A stretch of DNA of 64,000 nt from a virus (IMGVR_UViG_2778261179_000006:1-64000); one strand, 5' to 3'. Positions 1 through 6,301 are shown, counted from the first letter of the stretch. Numbers and translations: made by a program. The notes: generated by a model not told the origin, from the sequence alone.

Positions 1-316
1 TGACAAAGTCATCGGGCATTATCTGAATATAAAACACTATCAATAAGTTGGAGTCATTACCACACCAGAGAACACCACCCTTTAATTTATATGCGCGAAG
101 CTCGACTTCCCTTTCAAAATCAAGCCTAGCAACGAAGCTTGAGTGATCGGCTACTAGCCCGAACGCCAAAAATTCCGGCAACCCCTCAACTAGGATATGG
201 AAGTCATATACTTGATCAATACGCGAAGACACTCTCACCGATGCATTATAGGACTCGCCACCGAATAACACGTCAGCATCACCTGACAGCCCTGAAATCT
301 TTCCAGCCAAGTTCAT
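1..316 (-). CDS. hypothetical protein, 5' part only (3' end beyond window); first gene downstream of the recombinase operon, likely island cargo
   Basis: Minus-strand ATG at 316 with GGAGG 4 nt upstream; frame stays open for 105 codons to position 1. Not in ORF track because the stop lies outside the window. Confidence 0.4.
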   Translation of the reverse strand, partial: MNLAGKISGLSGDADVLFGGESYNASVRVSSRIDQVYDFHILVEGLPEFLAFGLVADHSSFVARLDFEREVELRAYKLKGGVLWCGNDSNLLIVFYIQIMPDDFV

Positions 317-352
317 ATCGCCTCCAATCCAGTGAGTAGAGTTACCCTTGAG

Positions 353-829
353 CTAAACACGGCCCGAAGGCGGTATTTCCTTATCAAACATTTTCAGAAT
401 TTTGGCTGACTCGGTATTTGACGGTAAATCTGCACCTTCAGGTGGAGTTTTATCGACACTTGCCATTTGTATACCCTTTTGCCTTACATGAAAGGCTATT
501 TGCTGCCAGCGGCGCTGCCACAGCTCTTCACGTTGCTTGTATGCTTCCAGCTCTGTTCTAAGGCGTGCTAGCTCCACCTGTAGCTGTTCGGCCTCTTTGG
601 TTGCTTGTTCTTTTGTTTTAACCAAGCCACCTGACAATGCTCTTTTGGCGTTGTCATAGGCTGCTTTAATTTCTGATTTTGCTTGAAGTGATTGGCGACT
701 AAACCCGAAACGCTCTTCCAGCACTGCCCAAGTTAACTTGGAGCCAAGCTCGCCCATAGCCCAGCGATCTAAATCAGCAACAATGGTATTGATATCACTA
801 TCCGACATACGTCTGAAACGCTTAGCCAT
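353..829 (-). CDS. small coiled-coil protein, fourth gene of the recombinase operon (ginD-like accessory protein)
   Basis: 158-aa ORF overlapping the stop of the upstream recombinase by 8 nt; charged/helical C-terminal half. Confidence 0.5.
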   Translation of the reverse strand: MAKRFRRMSDSDINTIVADLDRWAMGELGSKLTWAVLEERFGFSRQSLQAKSEIKAAYDNAKRALSGGLVKTKEQATKEAEQLQVELARLRTELEAYKQREELWQRRWQQIAFHVRQKGIQMASVDKTPPEGADLPSNTESAKILKMFDKEIPPSGRV

Positions 830-2831
830 GTTTCACCTCTATTAGATATTGCTCAGGGTCAAAATGCTCAACCCCATTGTCCGCTAATTGGGTTTTTAGG
901 GTTTTAAGTTTTTTATCATTGTGCGCAAGCCAGTCGGCACTTTTCTTTGGCTTTTGACTACTCATTTGCTGCTCAGCGTTTTTGCGAGCAATTGCCGTGA
1001 GTGCATATTGCCGTTTTAGGTCTTCCAATCGACCAGCGTCGCCTTTTGCCCACACATAGTCCTTGCAGTCTGCTGAACATTGCAAATGGCGCTCACAAGG
1101 TGTTTGCGAGAAATTATGGATACAAATACCAGTACCGACATCATGCACCGCCTGTACCCTTGCTTTGAGGAAAACATCCTGAACATCAACCGGAATCGCT
1201 TGAATCTGCTCTGCTATTTGCCCACCGACGAGTCCTTTCTTTATGTCTTGGCGCAGCATAAGCGCTCGCTTTTCTCGTGACGTATGCTGATACGCTTTTG
1301 TGTCTCGTGAATTCGTCCTACCAAACCATTCCGTCTGCAGTAGATCACTCAAACCGCCTTCATCAAGCAAGGTATTGAGTGTGTGTCGAAAATGGTGACT
1401 GGTGAAATCCACCTCGACACTAGCAGATGCATATTCCGCCGCGAGGTCAGGGAAATAGCGAAGGAATGTCGAAAACATTGACTGGCTGCAACTGGTCGCA
1501 AGCCAATGAGCATAAGTGCCACTCGAAAGGCCGAGTGGACGGAGGAAAAGTAAATCTTTCAGGTAATATTCTTTACCGAATTGATCGGTATGAATGGCCG
1601 AGAGACAGGCACCCGAAAAATCACGGGCACAGTACTTTTTCAAACCTTCCTTATTCGTGAAATGAATGGGGTTTCGTGGGCGTTGCCCTTGTTTGGTTCG
1701 CGCATCGACGTCTGGCCAAGCTAGGTTTTGTTTACGAAGCCAACCCGTTGACGTTAATCCTGTATCACTAATCCCTAATTCCTTTATATCGCTAGCATAG
1801 AGCCGCTGTTCACTCGGAATTTGCTCCAAAAAGCGTAAATCCGGCCCACGTGTTTTATGCATCTCTTCTGCCGTCTCGCGAGCCGCAGCGGTGAGATCTG
1901 CTAATTCATTGAGCACTTCTTCAACGATAGGTTTCACCTCTGATGGTAGGTACAATTTGCGTTTCGGAGTGAATACATCTCCTCGACTTGTTTTACGCGG
2001 GAAGTACTCGATATAACCGTTCCCTTCGTCATCAACAGACAGTGTTTGATTTGGTAAAAGTGAAACCTCACTAAACCGTCGCCCCGTGCACGCAAGCAAA
2101 GTCAATAACAAAACATACAGCCGGTATTTATGAATTTTCGGTACATTTTGATAAAGCTCTCCCATTACACGGAATACTTTTGGATCAACCAATTTGTCCG
2201 ATTTGGTCTCAATAACCTCTGGATCATCAAGCCGCTTGTGGCTTAAACCGTCCGTGCTCGCTGGGCGCTTCATTCGCGCGTATTTAAATTGCAACAGAAC
2301 CCGGCACAAGCCGTTGGCATCGCAATGCGCTGCGAACTCTGCAATATGTTTATGGAGGTTATATGCGGTCGCCTCGCGGTAATGTTTTGAAATTAACGCG
2401 CATGCATTATCAAGTGCTTCGGGAGTCAGGTTGAGTAGTTTCTGACCCAATTGAGTTGCAGCCGCGGCAACATAACCGACTGCTGTTATGAAGTTACGCT
2501 GATTGGGCGTTGACTGATGTTTTCTATGAAATCTTAAAACGAATAACGCCTTACACACTTCACCCCAACTATCCACTAGAGACTCGGCGCCTAATTTTGG
2601 TGATAAGGTAAAGACAAAAGACGCTGCTTTGATATTTTTTCCAGTCAGCTTCACAAGTCTGCCAGATGTTATCTTCCAATTCGATTCATGCCATTTAACC
2701 GACTCGAAACCATCTAACTTCAAAAGCTGGGCTTTGCTGACTAGGGCTTGTAAATTTGCATTCCGATCGCGTTCTAAACGATCAATAAAGGGAATAACTT
2801 TGGCTCTGCGTTGCGAGCGACCATCAGACAT
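822..2831 (-). CDS. tyrosine recombinase (third of trio)
   Basis: 669 aa; C-terminal HHFRHT...GRTN...AYQH resembles tyrosine-recombinase catalytic box; overlaps neighbours by a few nt. Confidence 0.75.
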   Translation of the reverse strand: MSDGRSQRRAKVIPFIDRLERDRNANLQALVSKAQLLKLDGFESVKWHESNWKITSGRLVKLTGKNIKAASFVFTLSPKLGAESLVDSWGEVCKALFVLRFHRKHQSTPNQRNFITAVGYVAAAATQLGQKLLNLTPEALDNACALISKHYREATAYNLHKHIAEFAAHCDANGLCRVLLQFKYARMKRPASTDGLSHKRLDDPEVIETKSDKLVDPKVFRVMGELYQNVPKIHKYRLYVLLLTLLACTGRRFSEVSLLPNQTLSVDDEGNGYIEYFPRKTSRGDVFTPKRKLYLPSEVKPIVEEVLNELADLTAAARETAEEMHKTRGPDLRFLEQIPSEQRLYASDIKELGISDTGLTSTGWLRKQNLAWPDVDARTKQGQRPRNPIHFTNKEGLKKYCARDFSGACLSAIHTDQFGKEYYLKDLLFLRPLGLSSGTYAHWLATSCSQSMFSTFLRYFPDLAAEYASASVEVDFTSHHFRHTLNTLLDEGGLSDLLQTEWFGRTNSRDTKAYQHTSREKRALMLRQDIKKGLVGGQIAEQIQAIPVDVQDVFLKARVQAVHDVGTGICIHNFSQTPCERHLQCSADCKDYVWAKGDAGRLEDLKRQYALTAIARKNAEQQMSSQKPKKSADWLAHNDKKLKTLKTQLADNGVEHFDPEQYLIEVKHG

Positions 2832-4422
2832 TCTCTTGGCCCTCTTCGCAGATTTTCACAACTTGTGCTACCGCCGATATCACTTCGTCGAGTTGAATCC
2901 CTAGGCGAGCATTTTCGTATTTTTCAAGTCGCTCTGTCCGACTCGCCAATAGGCAATCCAACACCTGCTCATGATCGGCATGTCGATAGGGCTGAAATTT
3001 AGGGCATAAATAGCAAGAGTATGGTGGGTCGAGGTGGCAAACGCTAGATTCTCCACAAACGCCGATATCGGACTGTACCGTCGGATTTTGTTCGTCAACA
3101 AAGATTAGGTGTTTGTCGTCACGATCACCATTGACAGCCTCAATATCGCTATCGACTACTTTACCTTTGAAAAAGTTTAGGTAATTAGACAAGGCTTTTG
3201 TGGTTGCCTTATCAAGGTGCTCAACAATTCTGCCAGCCATTTCAAAATAAACCTGCACATGCTGGGTATCGGTATGATCGAGAATCCTCGCCAGCTCACG
3301 CTTGCTAATTCCCTCAACTGCTAACCCTGTCGCAAGCGTATACCGCAGTCTTCGGGGGGTAACGTGCATCAATTCACCGGTAAGTGGGGAAATTAGATTG
3401 TGTCGTTTGATAAAGCCTCTGATGAGATTAGCTATACCTGTCGACATCATATTGAAGGCGTCATCCCAACGCTTCGACTCTAATGCATAAGAATTTTCGG
3501 TTGGTTTAATAAACAAAGGTCTCTCGATTTCTCTAACACTTCCATCAGCATCAACCACTAGCTTTTTATGTTGCGAAGCGTTGATAAGCGCCACTAGGTG
3601 TTTGGCAATATCCGGTTCCAAATATTCATCCACCATATCGTCTCTTGGCGCTAGTTGCCTCTTTTTAATTCTGGGCATTCGTAAAATATAGCAAGGTGAA
3701 TCGGAATCAGGCGTCAGGTTAATTAAGTCCGTTTCTTTTAGAAAAGTTAGGTTAGCTGGATTTCTTCCGAAAGCAATTGAAAGAGCTATAGCCGCCTTCT
3801 GTTGCAGGTGCTCATACTCCATACTGTTGTCTTGCTTTAACGTATTGATTATGAGTTGAAGCTCAAGAGTTCTATGAAGAGGTCCTCTATCAGGATCTTC
3901 TTGTCTAACTGCCTCCCCTTTTGGATTTCCCGGAATTTCCATCGCTTCTAACTCGTGAGCATAAATCTCCGAAAACCCAAATTCTGGGTAGTTTTCCGCG
4001 CACCAAATATACCACTGTATTGGTCTATACAATGCCCAAAGGCGGTGCCTTTTACGAGCTTCATTTATTGCGGCTTCCATCACCGCAATTAAACGTAATT
4101 CAAGATCATCAATGGAAAGATCGGAGACGAGGGAATAATCGGTCTGTTTCGAGAAAATTGCGGCAGATATATCACTCCAATATTGCACTCCAGCGTGCGA
4201 TGACACTCGCGTCGCTTGATCAATAATACAGCTTTTTACTACAACTTTAAGAGTGCCGCTTTGGATGCGAGAGAAGTCGAGCCGACTGTGTCGATATAGC
4301 AAGGGCAACACCCAAACATCTCCAGCACTCTCAACCTTAACACCCTCACGAGTAAAAAAAGTATCAGGTAAATTCAGCCTAGAATCATTATTATCTCTAG
4401 CTTGTTGAAGCAACTGGTTCAT
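2824..4422 (-). CDS. tyrosine recombinase (second of trio)
   Basis: 532 aa; RRLRYTLATG ... LDHTDTQHVQVY motif arrangement typical of integrase-family catalytic domain. Confidence 0.75.
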   Translation of the reverse strand: MNQLLQQARDNNDSRLNLPDTFFTREGVKVESAGDVWVLPLLYRHSRLDFSRIQSGTLKVVVKSCIIDQATRVSSHAGVQYWSDISAAIFSKQTDYSLVSDLSIDDLELRLIAVMEAAINEARKRHRLWALYRPIQWYIWCAENYPEFGFSEIYAHELEAMEIPGNPKGEAVRQEDPDRGPLHRTLELQLIINTLKQDNSMEYEHLQQKAAIALSIAFGRNPANLTFLKETDLINLTPDSDSPCYILRMPRIKKRQLAPRDDMVDEYLEPDIAKHLVALINASQHKKLVVDADGSVREIERPLFIKPTENSYALESKRWDDAFNMMSTGIANLIRGFIKRHNLISPLTGELMHVTPRRLRYTLATGLAVEGISKRELARILDHTDTQHVQVYFEMAGRIVEHLDKATTKALSNYLNFFKGKVVDSDIEAVNGDRDDKHLIFVDEQNPTVQSDIGVCGESSVCHLDPPYSCYLCPKFQPYRHADHEQVLDCLLASRTERLEKYENARLGIQLDEVISAVAQVVKICEEGQENV

Positions 4423-5600
4423 CTATCGCTTCCCATTGTCAGTTTCTTTTGGTAATCAGATAATGCTTGCCGAGCCCGATCTTCAATTTCTTGAGCAATA
4501 TAAACCGTTTGAGACTCTAAACTTGAGTCGCCACGTAACATTGCCAAAGCTTGCTTTCTACGGTCCTCTTCAAGACCTGCCTCTCGCAATGCCCTTTCCA
4601 TTCGAGTCGAGAATGTATGCCGCAATGCTTTCGGAGTCAGTATTTCTGGCAAGTAGTCCGGATATGCACTCCTTAGACGAGTAAAAAGTTGTGTCAGTGA
4701 TGAATGGGACAACGGGTTGCCTTCATCACTTAAGATCAAATAATCACTAGATTTACTCGATTTAGATTCTAGGCTCTCCCTCATTTCGACAATGTATCTG
4801 TCTAACATCCGTAGAAAGTGGCTACCCTCAAGCGGCAATACTCGACCACTGCGCTTAACACTGGGTCTGGGCCTTCTCTCGTCATTTGGATCGGGTGGTC
4901 TTCGTTGAATAGTTACCGACGAAATTGCCCCAATATTAATATCTTCAACCCGAAGACTAAGAAGCTCCCCTGGACGGAGTCCACAGTTAAGCATCAATGA
5001 TACTGCGACAAAGTTTCGATACTTAATCGGCTCGTAAAAAGCGAAAGAGTCAGCGCTCTCAGGGTTGAGACAATTAACTAAGAATCTGGCTTCATCCTCT
5101 GTCAAAGCTTTTCGGCTAATACCAGCACTCTTTGGACTATTAATAAAACCTTTCTCAATCCACGCGATGATTCGCTTTCTAGACTCTTGTATCGAGTCAT
5201 ACTGGCTATCATTCGATGGTAGAGACGACAAATAGACATCAATCTCCCAGACGAAATACTGGCGTATTGTGGCTAATCGACTATTAAACGTATGCGGGGC
5301 AACAACCTTGCTTTCGATCTCCATGTCTTTTCTCAAAAACTCTAGCAAGCTTCCTCTAAATTCAGCTTCCGAGAAAAGCGCACCGTTTTTTAGTCTCGAG
5401 TGCATGTCGATCCGATGAACGTTGAACCATCGATACAAAACAGACAGCTCACGAAGGTTTCTAATGAGGGTATTTGTGCTTAAGTTTCGTCTTCCCATCA
5501 CAAACTCGTTAGGAGACGGGATTGGTAAACCATCATCATCTAGAAGTATTGGTAATAGATCACCAGAACTGTGTACAACGGTTTCAACTCTCACAAACAC
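4419..5600 (-). CDS. tyrosine recombinase (first of trio)
   Basis: 393 aa; KALRHTFSTR ... QTVYIAQE C-terminal integrase-like box; first gene of a 4-gene overlapping operon. Confidence 0.75.
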   Translation of the reverse strand: MFVRVETVVHSSGDLLPILLDDDGLPIPSPNEFVMGRRNLSTNTLIRNLRELSVLYRWFNVHRIDMHSRLKNGALFSEAEFRGSLLEFLRKDMEIESKVVAPHTFNSRLATIRQYFVWEIDVYLSSLPSNDSQYDSIQESRKRIIAWIEKGFINSPKSAGISRKALTEDEARFLVNCLNPESADSFAFYEPIKYRNFVAVSLMLNCGLRPGELLSLRVEDINIGAISSVTIQRRPPDPNDERRPRPSVKRSGRVLPLEGSHFLRMLDRYIVEMRESLESKSSKSSDYLILSDEGNPLSHSSLTQLFTRLRSAYPDYLPEILTPKALRHTFSTRMERALREAGLEEDRRKQALAMLRGDSSLESQTVYIAQEIEDRARQALSDYQKKLTMGSDR

Positions 5601-5690
5601 CCCTTTGTTTACACTTTAGTCACCAAAGAACTTTTATATTTACATTTAATTTTATAAGCGAACTTTTATAATTACACAACCTTCGGACAA

Positions 5691-5730
5691 TAAAAAGCCC
5701 TCTTTTAACTTTACAGAAAAAAGAGGGCTC
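5691..5730 (-). terminator. hairpin terminator downstream of ssb
   Basis: Inverted repeat AGCCCTCTTTT / AAAAGAGGGCT with A-run on plus strand (U-run on minus transcript). Confidence 0.45.
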
Positions 5731-5812
5731 GAATGCTTATAACACACTAATTTAATTGGTTATTTATTTAGATAAATCTGTAAATAAATTTACATTTAAA
5801 TATTTATCAGGG

Positions 5813-6301
5813 CTAAAACGGAATATCGTCGTCAAAGTCCATTGGAGGTTCGTTATTGGCGTTGCTCTGAGGTTTACCGCCACCACTGTATTGCTGGTGG
5901 TTTTGAGGTTGGTTTGATTGCCCCCAGCCATTTGAGGACTGTGAATCGTCACGGCGAGCGCCTATCATTTGCATGGTGCCGCCCTGGCTGACGATAATTT
6001 CCGTCGTGTAACGTTCTACACCGGCGTCATCTGTCCACTTACGGGTTTTAAGTTTCCCTTCGATGTAGACCTGAGAACCTTTTCGTAAATATTCACTCGC
6101 AATTTCAGCAAGTTTTCCGAACAAAACGACTTTATGCCATTCTGTTTGCTCTTTCTGTTGGCCCGTTTGCTTGTCGCGCCATGATTCATTCGTTGCGATG
6201 CTGAGTATTCCGACCGCTCCGCCATTTGGTATATACCTGATCTCCGGGTCTTGCCCCAGGGTACCAATCAGGATGACTTTGTTTACACCGCGTTGTGCCA
6301 C
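5813..6301 (-). CDS. ssb: single-stranded DNA-binding protein
   Basis: 162 aa; OB-fold SSB N-terminus, Gly/Gln-rich linker, acidic C-terminal tail DFDDDIPF. Confidence 0.9.

Follow-up and report, generated by a model that had tools for sequence, protein, structure and literature searches.

The closest described relatives of the locus analysed here are the GInts, genomic islands with three integrases, defined by the genes ginABCD (Bardaji et al. 2017, PMC5385486). In the published criterion, the insertion of a GInt is flanked by imperfect direct repeats of 10–17 nt (attL and attR), and in published ssb-borne GInts the insertion lies at the ssb 3′ end and the repeats share the core CCGTTYT. GinA and GinB are described as having the catalytic motif RHRHY, with GinC divergent. 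Their cargo includes defence systems, virulence clusters and resistance genes, while no transfer functions are encoded; the GInt authors stated that the route between cells was not known, and plasmid association had not been shown. In Escherichia coli, hotspot #39, located between yjcB and ssb, is occupied by GInts (Hochhauser et al. 2023, PMC10121019). [quoted passage not shown] 2023, PMC10214605). Tn554 has been described in Staphylococcus and Enterococcus. Donor-core behaviour has been reported for GInts, SEs and Tn554, and GinD has been reported to resemble TnpC of Tn554. The target of Tn554 is att554 in radC. RIT elements reportedly possess long inverted repeats and three recombinases of normal size, with no fourth gene.

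We analysed a 64,000-nt stretch of viral DNA (IMGVR_UViG_2778261179_000006:1-64000), hereafter the window. Four genes near its first base are the ginABCD module of a GInt (Tn6571-family element), and positions 62–5814 very probably represent the recombination end of a GInt inserted site-specifically in a P1-like phage-plasmid, at its ssb gene. The features are as follows.

1–61, plus strand: terminal 61 bp of IS1, insB-proximal end (matches the IS1 ends of numerous records at 98%)
62–316, minus strand: 5′ remnant of the first cargo gene, 85 codons, reading through into IS1 (translation)
353–829, minus strand: ginD, 158-aa auxiliary protein (ORF)
822–2831, minus strand: ginC, 669-aa divergent tyrosine-recombinase-like protein (ORF and Pfam)
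2824–4422, minus strand: ginB, 532-aa tyrosine recombinase (ORF and Pfam)
4419–5600, minus strand: ginA, 393-aa tyrosine recombinase (ORF and Pfam)
5601–5814, minus strand: non-coding left end of the island (sequence; 74% A+T)
5813–5821, minus strand: attL core CCGTTTT-AG (alignment of occupied and empty sites of P1, K-12 and plasmids)
5813–6301, minus strand: P1 ssb, the target gene, intact (Pfam SSB, E=1.9e-39; 98% identical to P1 ssb)

The sequence-only reading had described four overlapping minus-strand genes of 393, 532, 669 and 158 aa, and the ORFs were found as such, all four full-length and with overlaps of 4, 8 and 8 nt. The RefSeq orthologs of ginA start at the GTG at 5594, giving 391 aa. 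The three large genes had also been described as integrase-type, and all three products matched Pfam Phage_integrase (PF00589): GinA with E=1.3e-15, and GinB (E=2.1e-5) and GinC (E=3.2e-4) under the Pfam gathering score. GinB further matched NCBIfam NF041502, ‘site-specific integrase’, over its full length with 271 bits, against a cut-off of 350 bits. GinC was identical at 666/669 residues to WP_001469675, and GinD at 152/158 residues to WP_001565354; the published ginC–ginD catalogue lists these two proteins as GinC and GinD, respectively. This catalogue was built by PSI-BLAST from the reference GinC and GinD of P. stutzeri DSM 4166, and the window proteins are linked to it via their catalogued orthologs. 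GinD, with a coiled-coil-like C-terminal half, showed 82–84% identity across four genera, and in its orthologs (5/5 tested) DUF6262 was the first or second match, each time under the gathering score (E=0.002–0.01). The same layout of SSB, a spacer of approximately 220 nt, genes of 390/527/669/158 aa and defence-type cargo recurs in V. cholerae, P. aeruginosa and Neisseria.

Next to these matches, candidate catalytic residues were identified in each of the three large proteins. In GinA, residue-level alignment to Tn1549 Int (PDB 6en0) pointed to R209, K324, R327, D358 and Y367, all invariant among homologs. For GinB, the candidates R220, R357, R360, H383 and Y392 are invariant columns among 22 homologs, with R357 at the position where His is usual; the alignments were weak, box II aligned to XerA (PDB 4a8e), and four cysteines (C456, C462, C470 and C473) form a C-terminal cluster. 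For GinC, the candidates R252, H479, R482, R505 and Y514, again from weak alignments, are invariant among 20 homologs of 59–78% identity, and a C-terminal Cys/His cluster spans C570 to C589. The AF2 model of GinC was of low confidence (pLDDT 62), its best Foldseek matches being Cre, Tn1549 Int and Flp (E about 1e-2), and a sequence search with the GinB and GinC family profiles reached no solved recombinase. Catalysis by GinC is disputed, one paper describing the protein as lacking the first Arg and another as lacking RHRY or the catalytic Tyr; contrary to these statements on Pseudomonas GinC, the GinC of the present clade retains an invariant R...HxxRH...Y. The sequence-only reading had proposed that a lack of R-H-R-Y residues would speak against it, and candidate R-H/K/R-R-Y residues were present and invariant among homologs. 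The catalytic roles of the Gin proteins are putative.

We then compared the module with each of the described systems. It resembles the GInts in gene order (integrase, integrase, large divergent integrase-like protein, small protein) and in protein sizes, in the cargo that starts straight after ginD and is of defence type, in the AT-rich character of both ends, in insertion at the end of ssb with SSB unaltered, and in imperfect repeats with the CCGTTYT core. Apart from the GinC residues, it differs in that the window copy is broken by IS1 after 255 bp of cargo. With SEs it shares four co-oriented core genes at the left end, tyrosine-recombinase chemistry, few target sites and, in each new copy, a right end that repeats a few bases of the donor left flank. 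With Tn554 it shares site- and orientation-specific tyrosine-recombinase transposition without inverted repeats or target duplication, carry-over of the donor core and a small auxiliary protein, and with RITs three adjacent, overlapping tyrosine recombinase genes. A four-gene recombinase module with donor-core carry-over as in SEs and Tn554, a GinD with a weak DUF6262 match and a reported likeness to TnpC, and a weak GmtY match of GinA (30 bits) could therefore also be read as an SE, Tn554 (tnpABC), RIT (ritABC) or gamma-mobile-trio element, but we consider membership in any of these classes highly improbable. SE membership is ruled against by the second protein, which has box II, a Tyr and an invariant RxxR...H...Y, whereas Tfp, the second protein of SEs, is without the motif; it is also ruled against by the published survey, in which the orthologs group with GinC/GinD, a protein similarity cluster separate from that of Tfp/Srap. 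SE hosts are mainly marine Gammaproteobacteria. The strict Tn554 family has two recombinases (TnpA and TnpB) against three recombinase-like genes here, is set apart by description, and the DUF6262 match on GinD was sub-threshold. RIT membership is ruled against by the fourth gene and by the lack of a terminal inverted repeat above chance, the left 200 bp of the island scoring 11 against the reverse-complemented right 200 bp, compared with a shuffle mean of 12.1 and a maximum of 22. For the gamma-mobile-trio, GmtY matched GinA only, with 30.3 bits, far under its cut-off of 340 bits, and GmtX and GmtZ gave no match in the NCBIfam profile search. Of the families named at the outset from the sequence, GInt is therefore retained on gene order, sizes, the fourth gene, the ssb target and the catalogued orthologs, while RIT and Tn554 are not.

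The position of the island was defined to the base pair by comparing occupied with empty ssb ends. Empty sites read CCGTTYTGA (K-12, ...CCGTTCTGA then TTTGTC; P1, ...CCGTTTTGA then ATGTGT), whereas occupied sites, in five different ssb genes, read CCGTTYTAG followed by CCCTGATAAAT. In the attL of the window, ATTCCGTTTTAG, P1 ssb contributes CCGTTTT (5821–5815) and the element contributes AG (5814–5813), so that the ssb stop codon TGA is changed to TAG on insertion, the AG of the element completing the new stop. Because the element joins ssb inside the stop codon, the SSB protein is unchanged. P1-family homology begins at 5815, with ssb followed by lyz. The island had initially been taken to end at 5740; since the junction falls within the ssb stop codon, it extends to 5814. 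It had also been placed beyond the ssb terminator. The terminator-like hairpin and T-run at 5690–5730 (‒23.1 kcal/mol, z=‒4.4) is, however, element sequence and not the ssb terminator of P1, in which isaA starts 29 nt after ssb. This hairpin is unaltered whether the ssb in front of it is chromosomal or plasmid-borne, and it is kept in E. coli, V. cholerae, P. aeruginosa and Neisseria with five compensatory pairs; in these same organisms the ssb-to-ginA spacer measures 207–220 nt. The left end further contains a candidate promoter and Shine–Dalgarno sequence for ginA, as well as repeated TGTAAA motifs that include the palindrome TGTAAATTTATTTACA. A consensus scan detected no promoter on this strand and did not flag the predicted terminator.

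We next examined relatives of the island in other replicons. The 5,751-bp segment 62–5812 recurs full-length, at 98.3–100% identity, in 22 records that represent 17 E. coli genomes, and the module is thus not a product of chance. At every locus inspected, this unit lies directly 3′ of an ssb gene, and its left end was found behind five ssb genes, namely, the yjcB-adjacent chromosomal ssb1, that of P1, those of two F-like plasmid types and that of a 34.7-kb plasmid. In isolate AF43, the island is present behind three ssb genes, one on the chromosome and two on F-like plasmids. The sequence-only reading had raised the case that these genes might be general to P1-like phages; the gin genes were absent from 19/19 P1-family phage records. 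Intact relatives measure approximately 18.5 kb, including approximately 12.5 kb of cargo with a type I restriction-modification system and GmrSD/DUF262 genes, and their final 100 bp are 69% A+T. In these intact copies, attR reads ...GTGAACTA then CCGTTYTGA, beyond which the sequence continues as it does natively after ssb in K-12 or P1. The att sites of the relatives are ATTCCGTTCTAG (attL) and ACTACCGTTTTGA (attR), with the native flanks restored beyond them. One core base distinguishes the two sites: in chromosomal copies it is C at attL and T at attR, while in the P1-like plasmid pZ1323CEC0011-3 it is T at attL and C at attR. This difference in the core base shows that the repeat did not arise by target duplication but is a hybrid att site; the core at the right end of the island is that of another ssb type. 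The occupation of three ssb genes in AF43 and the transfer of att cores from one ssb type to another are comparative traces of mobility.

The window segment is 100% identical to chromosomal copies, the IS1 junction included, and P1 carries IS1 and ssb in matching order and orientation. An alternative to site-specific integration is homologous recombination with a chromosomal IS1-ginDCBA-ssb1 segment, in which IS1 and ssb would have served as the arms. A crossover within ssb would, however, leave chromosomal-type 3′ codons, whereas the ssb end in the window is of P1 type, GACGACGATATTCCGTTTT, and not the chromosomal GATGATGACATTCCGTTCT; moreover, in another P1-like plasmid the 18.5-kb island is complete, and its attL and attR fall on the same bases. 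The P1 type of the window ssb up to its last base argues for site-specific entry, and homologous recombination appears very unlikely.

Site-specific insertion would proceed as follows. The element, of which window 62–5814 represents the AT-rich left end, the ginA-ginB-ginC-ginD operon with its translational coupling and the first 255 bp of the cargo, would form a circle whose junction, ...GTGAACTA-CCGTTYT-AGCCCTGATAAAT..., recombines with the final codons of ssb (Pro-Phe-stop, CCN TTY TGA). Strand exchange is predicted after the T of the ssb stop codon and ahead of its GA, which would leave SSB intact with TAG as its stop. The hairpin and T-run behind ssb, and after them the predicted promoter region of ginA, would both be supplied by the element. 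By analogy with the Pseudomonas GInts that have been studied experimentally, all four Gin proteins may be needed for circular excision and re-insertion. In the context of P1, a complete island would be expected to end ...GTGAACTACCGTTYTGA, joined to the isaA flank of P1. Because the target encodes the conserved C-terminal tip of SSB, any ssb in the cell may serve as a landing site, whether chromosomal or carried by a phage-plasmid or a conjugative plasmid. Circle formation and the route by which the window copy arrived are inferred.

GInts, their targeting of the ssb end and the E. coli yjcB–ssb hotspot have been published already. Two points are new: GInts are carried by a phage-plasmid as well as by conjugative plasmids, and the core at the right end may preserve the type of the donor ssb. 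The presence of one GInt lineage next to ssb in a P1-like phage-plasmid gives a hint of the way in which these islands pass from cell to cell, and a phage-plasmid can gain a restriction-modification or defence island and still keep its ssb. We lean slightly towards the view that GInts of this clade use any ssb Pro-Phe-stop end and hop between the chromosome and the ssb paralogues of P1-like phage-plasmids and F-like leading regions, in which case the C/T base of attR would record which type of ssb the island occupied in its previous host replicon. If so, ssb hopping would give GInts the missing intercellular vehicle, via transduction/lysogenisation or conjugation; a shuttle role for the ssb paralogues of mobile replicons is a testable hypothesis. 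Taken alone, the window calls for an ordinary annotation, that of a known element type damaged by IS1.

The damage lies at the cargo side. Bases 1–61 are IS1 and fall outside the GInt core and the island, although the feature had first been taken to begin at 1; the IS1 terminal inverted repeat GGTAATGACTCC... reads inward from 61, as seen directly in the sequence. The first cargo gene begins 36 nt beyond ginD, at window position 316, and is interrupted by IS1 at 62, so that below 353 the window contains only the 255-bp remnant and then IS1. The remnant is identical at 72/85 residues to the N-terminus of the intact gene of island L004, annotated there and in the other uninterrupted islands L003 and L010 as a 437-aa ‘YopA family’ protein. 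Both attR and the native post-ssb flank of P1 were looked for and were absent within the window. With no attR in the window and IS1 abutting the island 255 bp beyond the start of the cargo, the window copy may be an immobile relic, a GInt by descent from which an IS1 deletion or IS1–IS1 recombination removed cargo and attR. P1 itself carries an IS1 in the same orientation approximately 1 kb beyond ssb (its order is ssb-isaA-IS1-isaB; the sequence-only reading had likewise noted an insertion sequence there), and in an IncY P1-like plasmid (L013/L014) with the same island lineage, ginA, ginB and ssb have been lost in an IS1-driven rearrangement. On the other side, the four gin ORFs are full-length, the window simply stops within IS1, and a chromosomal copy with the same IS1 junction, described below, has kept its cargo and attR. 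We judge the loss of cargo and attR less likely than not. The IS1/island junction of the window is common to the chromosomes of A29 and MDK9L1 and to plasmid pKTa005_2. It is plausible that the rest of the cargo lies downstream, mostly outside the window, because the 100% identical copy on the chromosome of strain A29 keeps its cargo past the same IS1 junction: in that copy, both the type I restriction-modification cargo and a regular attR lie past a nested IS1-mrk-IS1 segment.

The left part of the window carries four consecutive minus-strand ORFs, with ssb and the phage lysozyme gene (lyz) to their right and the end of an IS1 to their left. The features are as follows.

1-61: terminal 61 bp of IS1
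353-829, minus strand: ginD, ORF of 158 aa
822-2831, minus strand: ginC, ORF of 669 aa
2824-4422, minus strand: ginB, ORF of 532 aa
4419-5600, minus strand: ginA, ORF of 393 aa
5813-6301, minus strand: ssb (Pfam SSB, E=1.9e-39)

Consecutive gin ORFs share overlaps of 4, 8 and 8 nt, which confirms the four overlapping genes of 393, 532, 669 and 158 aa described in the sequence-only reading. The G+C content was 44.4% in the island region and 48.5% in the remainder of the window, and the window from 5815 rightward showed 97-98% identity to P1-family phages. The proposed comparison with P1-family genomes bore out an insertion, since the island segment (62-5814) was found in none of 19 P1-family phage records and the module is thus not general at the P1 ssb locus. 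In P1, ssb is followed by isaA, IS1 (in the same orientation as in the window) and isaB; because isaA begins 29 nt past ssb, the two genes are probably co-transcribed. The insertion (window 5804-5830 compared with P1, L007:2960-3010) parts ssb from its former downstream sequence and places a hairpin with a T-run behind it. Because the window extends from ssb round the P1 map in the other direction, and not into the isaA-IS1-isaB region, whatever lies past IS1 is outside the window. No record combining IS1, the island and a P1 ssb was found in the phage, plasmid and E. coli collections.

The hallmarks of GInts (genomic islands with a ginABCD module) are an operon of three integrase-like genes and a gene for a small protein, cargo from the ginD stop onwards, imperfect flanking repeats of 10-17 nt and a far end that is short and AT-rich; all four gin genes are needed for excision and integration, and several unrelated GInts sit at the end of ssb and leave its product unaltered (Bardaji et al. 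2017, PMC5385486). Repeats with the same core as in the window are listed in Table S3 of that work for GInts of Ralstonia (left, CCGTTCTAAT; right, CCGTTTTGAAT), Opitutus (GTGCCGTTCT) and Shewanella (CCGTTTTTAATT) (PMC5385486). A ginC-ginD catalogue, built by PSI-BLAST with GinC and GinD of P. stutzeri, includes WP_001469675 and WP_001565354; in the same study, the proteins of GInts and of strand-biased circularizing elements (SEs; intA-tfp-intB-srap) formed distinct clusters, and 7.5% of Escherichia replicons held GInts (Idola et al. 2023, PMC10214605). These two entries are the GinC and GinD encoded by intact islands in E. coli, and they agree with the window proteins at 666/669 and 152/158 residues, respectively. 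The E. coli defence hotspot #39, between yjcB and ssb, is filled in 38/1,292 genomes, and its occupants include GInts under the name 'Tn6571-family' transposons (Hochhauser et al. 2023, PMC10121019). The ginABCD layout, the core repeats at the ssb end and the catalogued GinC and GinD orthologs together support the assignment of the recombinase module to GInts. Membership of the recombinase-in-trio (RIT), SE, Tn554 and gamma-mobile-trio (GMT) groups was also weighed, and was rejected by membership tests. The source cited for the name Tn6571 is reportedly a paper on Pseudomonas plasmids. A search of the literature on three-tyrosine-recombinase islands and on GInts at ssb gave nothing further than the works cited here; as the papers of Bardaji, Idola and Hochhauser and their colleagues cover all three, the element type, its ssb target and its chromosomal form in E. 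coli are already known.

All three large proteins matched Pfam Phage_integrase, in agreement with the integrase-type box noticed in each of them, with a strong match for GinA (E=1.3e-15); GinB (E=2.1e-5) and GinC (E=3.2e-4) were matched in their C-terminal boxes only and scored below the gathering threshold. GinB also matched NCBIfam NF041502 'site-specific integrase' over nearly its full length (271 bits; cut-off, 350), and GinA gave a trivial score only with NCBIfam GmtY. The alignment of GinA with Tn1549 Int (PDB 6en0) spans both catalytic boxes and points to R209, K324 (where His is usual), R327, D358 (where His or Trp is usual) and Y367 as candidate catalytic residues; box II of GinB could be aligned to XerA (PDB 4a8e). 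By motif-based assignment, the candidate residues are R220, R357, R360, H383 and Y392 in GinB, invariant among 22 homologs of 54-74% identity, and R252, H479, R482, R505 and Y514 in GinC, invariant among 20 homologs of 59-78% identity. The R-H-R-Y residues, whose loss would have spoken against three recombinases, thus appear to be represented by candidates in GinA, GinB and GinC. Searches of PDB with the GinB and GinC family profiles gave no recombinase match at E<=1, and comparison of the GinC family with GinA and GinB by hhalign yielded just local, non-significant alignments of box I and box II. The AlphaFold2 model of GinC (20 homologs) was poor (pLDDT 62, pTM 0.33, catalytic segments <50); its top Foldseek ranks were Cre, Tre, Tn1549 Int and Flp (E ~1e-2, TM ~0.2), a ranking that lends weak support to a recombinase fold. 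GinC has been stated to be without the first Arg (Bardaji et al. 2017, PMC5385486), and without the RHRY motif and the catalytic Tyr (Idola et al. 2023, PMC10214605); these statements do not obviously fit the clade of the window. Past the catalytic region, GinB (2824-4422) carries an invariant cluster of C456, C462, C470 and C473, and GinC (822-2831) one of C570, C579, C585 and C589, also invariant, with His572 invariant and His582 nearly so; both clusters are possible zinc-binding modules. GinD is similar to TnpC of Tn554 (Bardaji et al. 2017, PMC5385486), and DUF6262 matched five of five GinD orthologs near full length at sub-threshold scores (E=0.002-0.01).

The unit 62-5812 was found full-length, at 98.3-100% identity, in 22 E. 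coli records (17 genomes; chromosomes and plasmids), and all loci inspected had it immediately 3' of some ssb: chromosomal ssb1 (uvrA-ssb1 region), a P1-type ssb on the IncY plasmid pZ1323CEC0011-3, the plasmid ssb of the IncFIA plasmid pKTa005_2, and the leading-region ssb on two F-like plasmids of isolate AF43. The intact island is 18,552 bp long (19,760 bp where IS5 is present) and encodes, in this order, ginA-D, a 437-aa 'YopA family' protein, a small HTH protein, hsdM, hsdS, two DUF262/GmrSD proteins, hsdR and an M48/SprT peptidase; in chromosomes it borders yjcB, the spot of ssb-yjcB in K-12. Plasmid p98219-contig_6 (34.7 kb; L012:2501-2555; also NZ_OZ547045.1) retains just the left-end 55 bp and the TAG stop behind ssb, a scar of an old insertion followed by deletion. 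A 330-bp remnant corresponding to window 5483-5812 (left end and start of ginA) lies unannotated in chromosome NZ_CP061749.1 at 4676189-4676518. The exact ssb/island junction string occurred in only three species-representative genomes and was absent from IMG/VR viral contigs. An exact E. coli-type ssb/GInt junction was seen in the 18.6-kb contig CALJDJ010000001.1 (L027), labelled as an uncultured Collinsella MAG; its presence in this actinobacterial bin is probably a binning error.

The junctions, written in the direction from ssb to the island with a slash at the boundary, are as follows.

Empty K-12 site: ...GACATTCCGTTCTGA/TTTGTCATT
Empty P1 site: ...GATATTCCGTTTTGA/ATGTGTAAAA
Occupied chromosomal site: ...CCGTTCTAG/CCCTGATAAATATTT
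Occupied site, window and P1-like plasmid: ...CCGTTTTAG/CCCTGATAAAT
Occupied IncFIA site: ...GCCCTTTTAG/CCCTG
Occupied AF43 plasmid sites: ...CCCGTTCTAG/CCCTG
Site behind ssb of the remnant: ...ACCGTTTTAG/CCCTG
Far end of intact islands: ...GTTTATGTGAACTA/CCGTTYTGA, then native K-12 or P1 flank

Host sequence ends at the T of the ssb stop (window 5815), and the following AG (5814-5813) belongs to the element, so that insertion turns the TGA stop into TAG and the SSB protein is unchanged. A complete island in this replicon would be predicted to end in ...GTGAACTACCGTTYTGA joined to the P1 isaA flank ATGTGTAAAAAACG. Neither attR, the far-end junction (GTTTATGTGAACTACCGTT), nor the native P1 post-ssb flank was found in the window at <=3 mismatches, the far end being outside it. 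Excision would be predicted to join the ends in a circle as GTGAACTA-CCGTTYT-AGCCCTGATAAAT and to restore the P1 ssb end as CCGTTTTGAATGTGT. The att repeat is imperfect and about 10-12 nt long. In the chromosomal lineages A29, Z1323CEC0011 and APEC_AN-25, the core at attL (the ssb-side junction) has the host's C and that at attR has T; in the P1-like plasmid of strain Z1323CEC0011, attL has P1's T and attR has C. The chromosomal and P1-like plasmid copies of this one strain therefore carry reciprocal cores. Target duplication was rejected as the source of the repeat because the polymorphic core base differs between attL and attR. From this mismatch it follows that the right-end core is brought in by the element, and it fits another ssb type than that of the current host. 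Such import agrees with the heteroduplex and attI variation (attI being the joined ends of the circular form) reported for GInts (Bardaji et al. 2017, PMC5385486) and with the copying of ~6 bp of the donor's left flank by SE and Tn554 (Idola et al. 2023, PMC10214605). Since the window ssb remains P1-type to its final base, the evidence argues for site-specific entry of this copy, and not for homologous exchange within ssb.

The same layout as in E. coli was found in V. cholerae, P. aeruginosa and Neisseria animaloris with close GinC relatives: SSB, an AT-rich spacer of 207-220 nt, genes of about 390, 527, 669 and 150-158 aa, and then large cargo genes, which in these three species are defence-like, e.g. 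NACHT and ResIII proteins. The spacer contains a hairpin with a T-run, constant in position in four genera and with compensatory changes in five pairs; the window copy, at 5690-5730, folds at -23.1 kcal/mol (z = -4.4). A consensus promoter/terminator scan of the minus strand flagged neither this hairpin nor a ginA promoter. Despite this result, folding and cross-genus conservation support the hairpin as a predicted element-borne terminator, which would give ssb a new downstream context and be followed by a putative ginA promoter region. GinA proteins share 73% identity between E. coli and Neisseria, both with left end CCCTGATAAAT, and 79% between Vibrio and Pseudomonas, both with left end ATGACATAAAG, and 49-54% across the two groups. 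GinB also splits with left-end type (loci L016, L018 and L020 of other records, set against window 5595-5812), less than GinA, whereas GinC (69-81%) and GinD (82-84%) are not divided in this way. As GinA tracks the left-end type and GinC and GinD do not, these comparisons of four taxa suggest that GinA may read the element's own end and that GinC and GinD may serve conserved functions. Elements with left end ATGACATAAAG leave the TGA stop of ssb in place.

IS1 adjoins the window island at 61/62, 85 codons into the first cargo gene, and the identical junction is shared by plasmid pKTa005_2 and the A29 and MDK9L1 chromosomes. The A29 copy of the island is 100% identical to that of the window; there (L015:15400-25200), the junction IS1 bounds one side of a nested IS1-mrkABCDF-IS1 segment (type 3 fimbriae), beyond which lie restriction-modification cargo and a proper attR. 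On the IncY P1-like plasmid of strain 873.10 (L013/L014), which has an island of this lineage, IS1 events deleted ginA, ginB, part of ginC and ssb, and left IS1 about 470 bp from lyz. Because A29 keeps cargo and attR and the 873.10 plasmid lost genes through IS1, the window island may continue past IS1 or may be a remnant. Both the MDK9L1 chromosome (L002:1-4000) and pKTa005_2 (L009:780-5050) have the same IS1 and polysaccharide-export genes to the left of the junction, and this shared left side suggests that whole rearranged islands travel from ssb to ssb.

The window module adds one more case to an established type of element, though the replicon that carries it is noteworthy, and its interest comes from the hypothesis that plasmids and phage-plasmids act as shuttles for such islands, not from the gin module itself. 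A comparative trace of activity is seen in isolate AF43, where complete copies of the island follow three ssb genes: one is chromosomal and the other two lie on F-like plasmids. On its chromosome (L023:1-2500, L025:750-15000), and likewise in GYB01 (L024), another GInt, distinct from the first, lies in tandem before yjcB, with genes of 415, 519, 677 and 139 aa and DRT3 (DRT3a/b) and Hachiman as cargo. This second GInt directly follows the first island's attR (CCGTTCTGA), where the regenerated ssb-like core seems to have been reused as a landing site.
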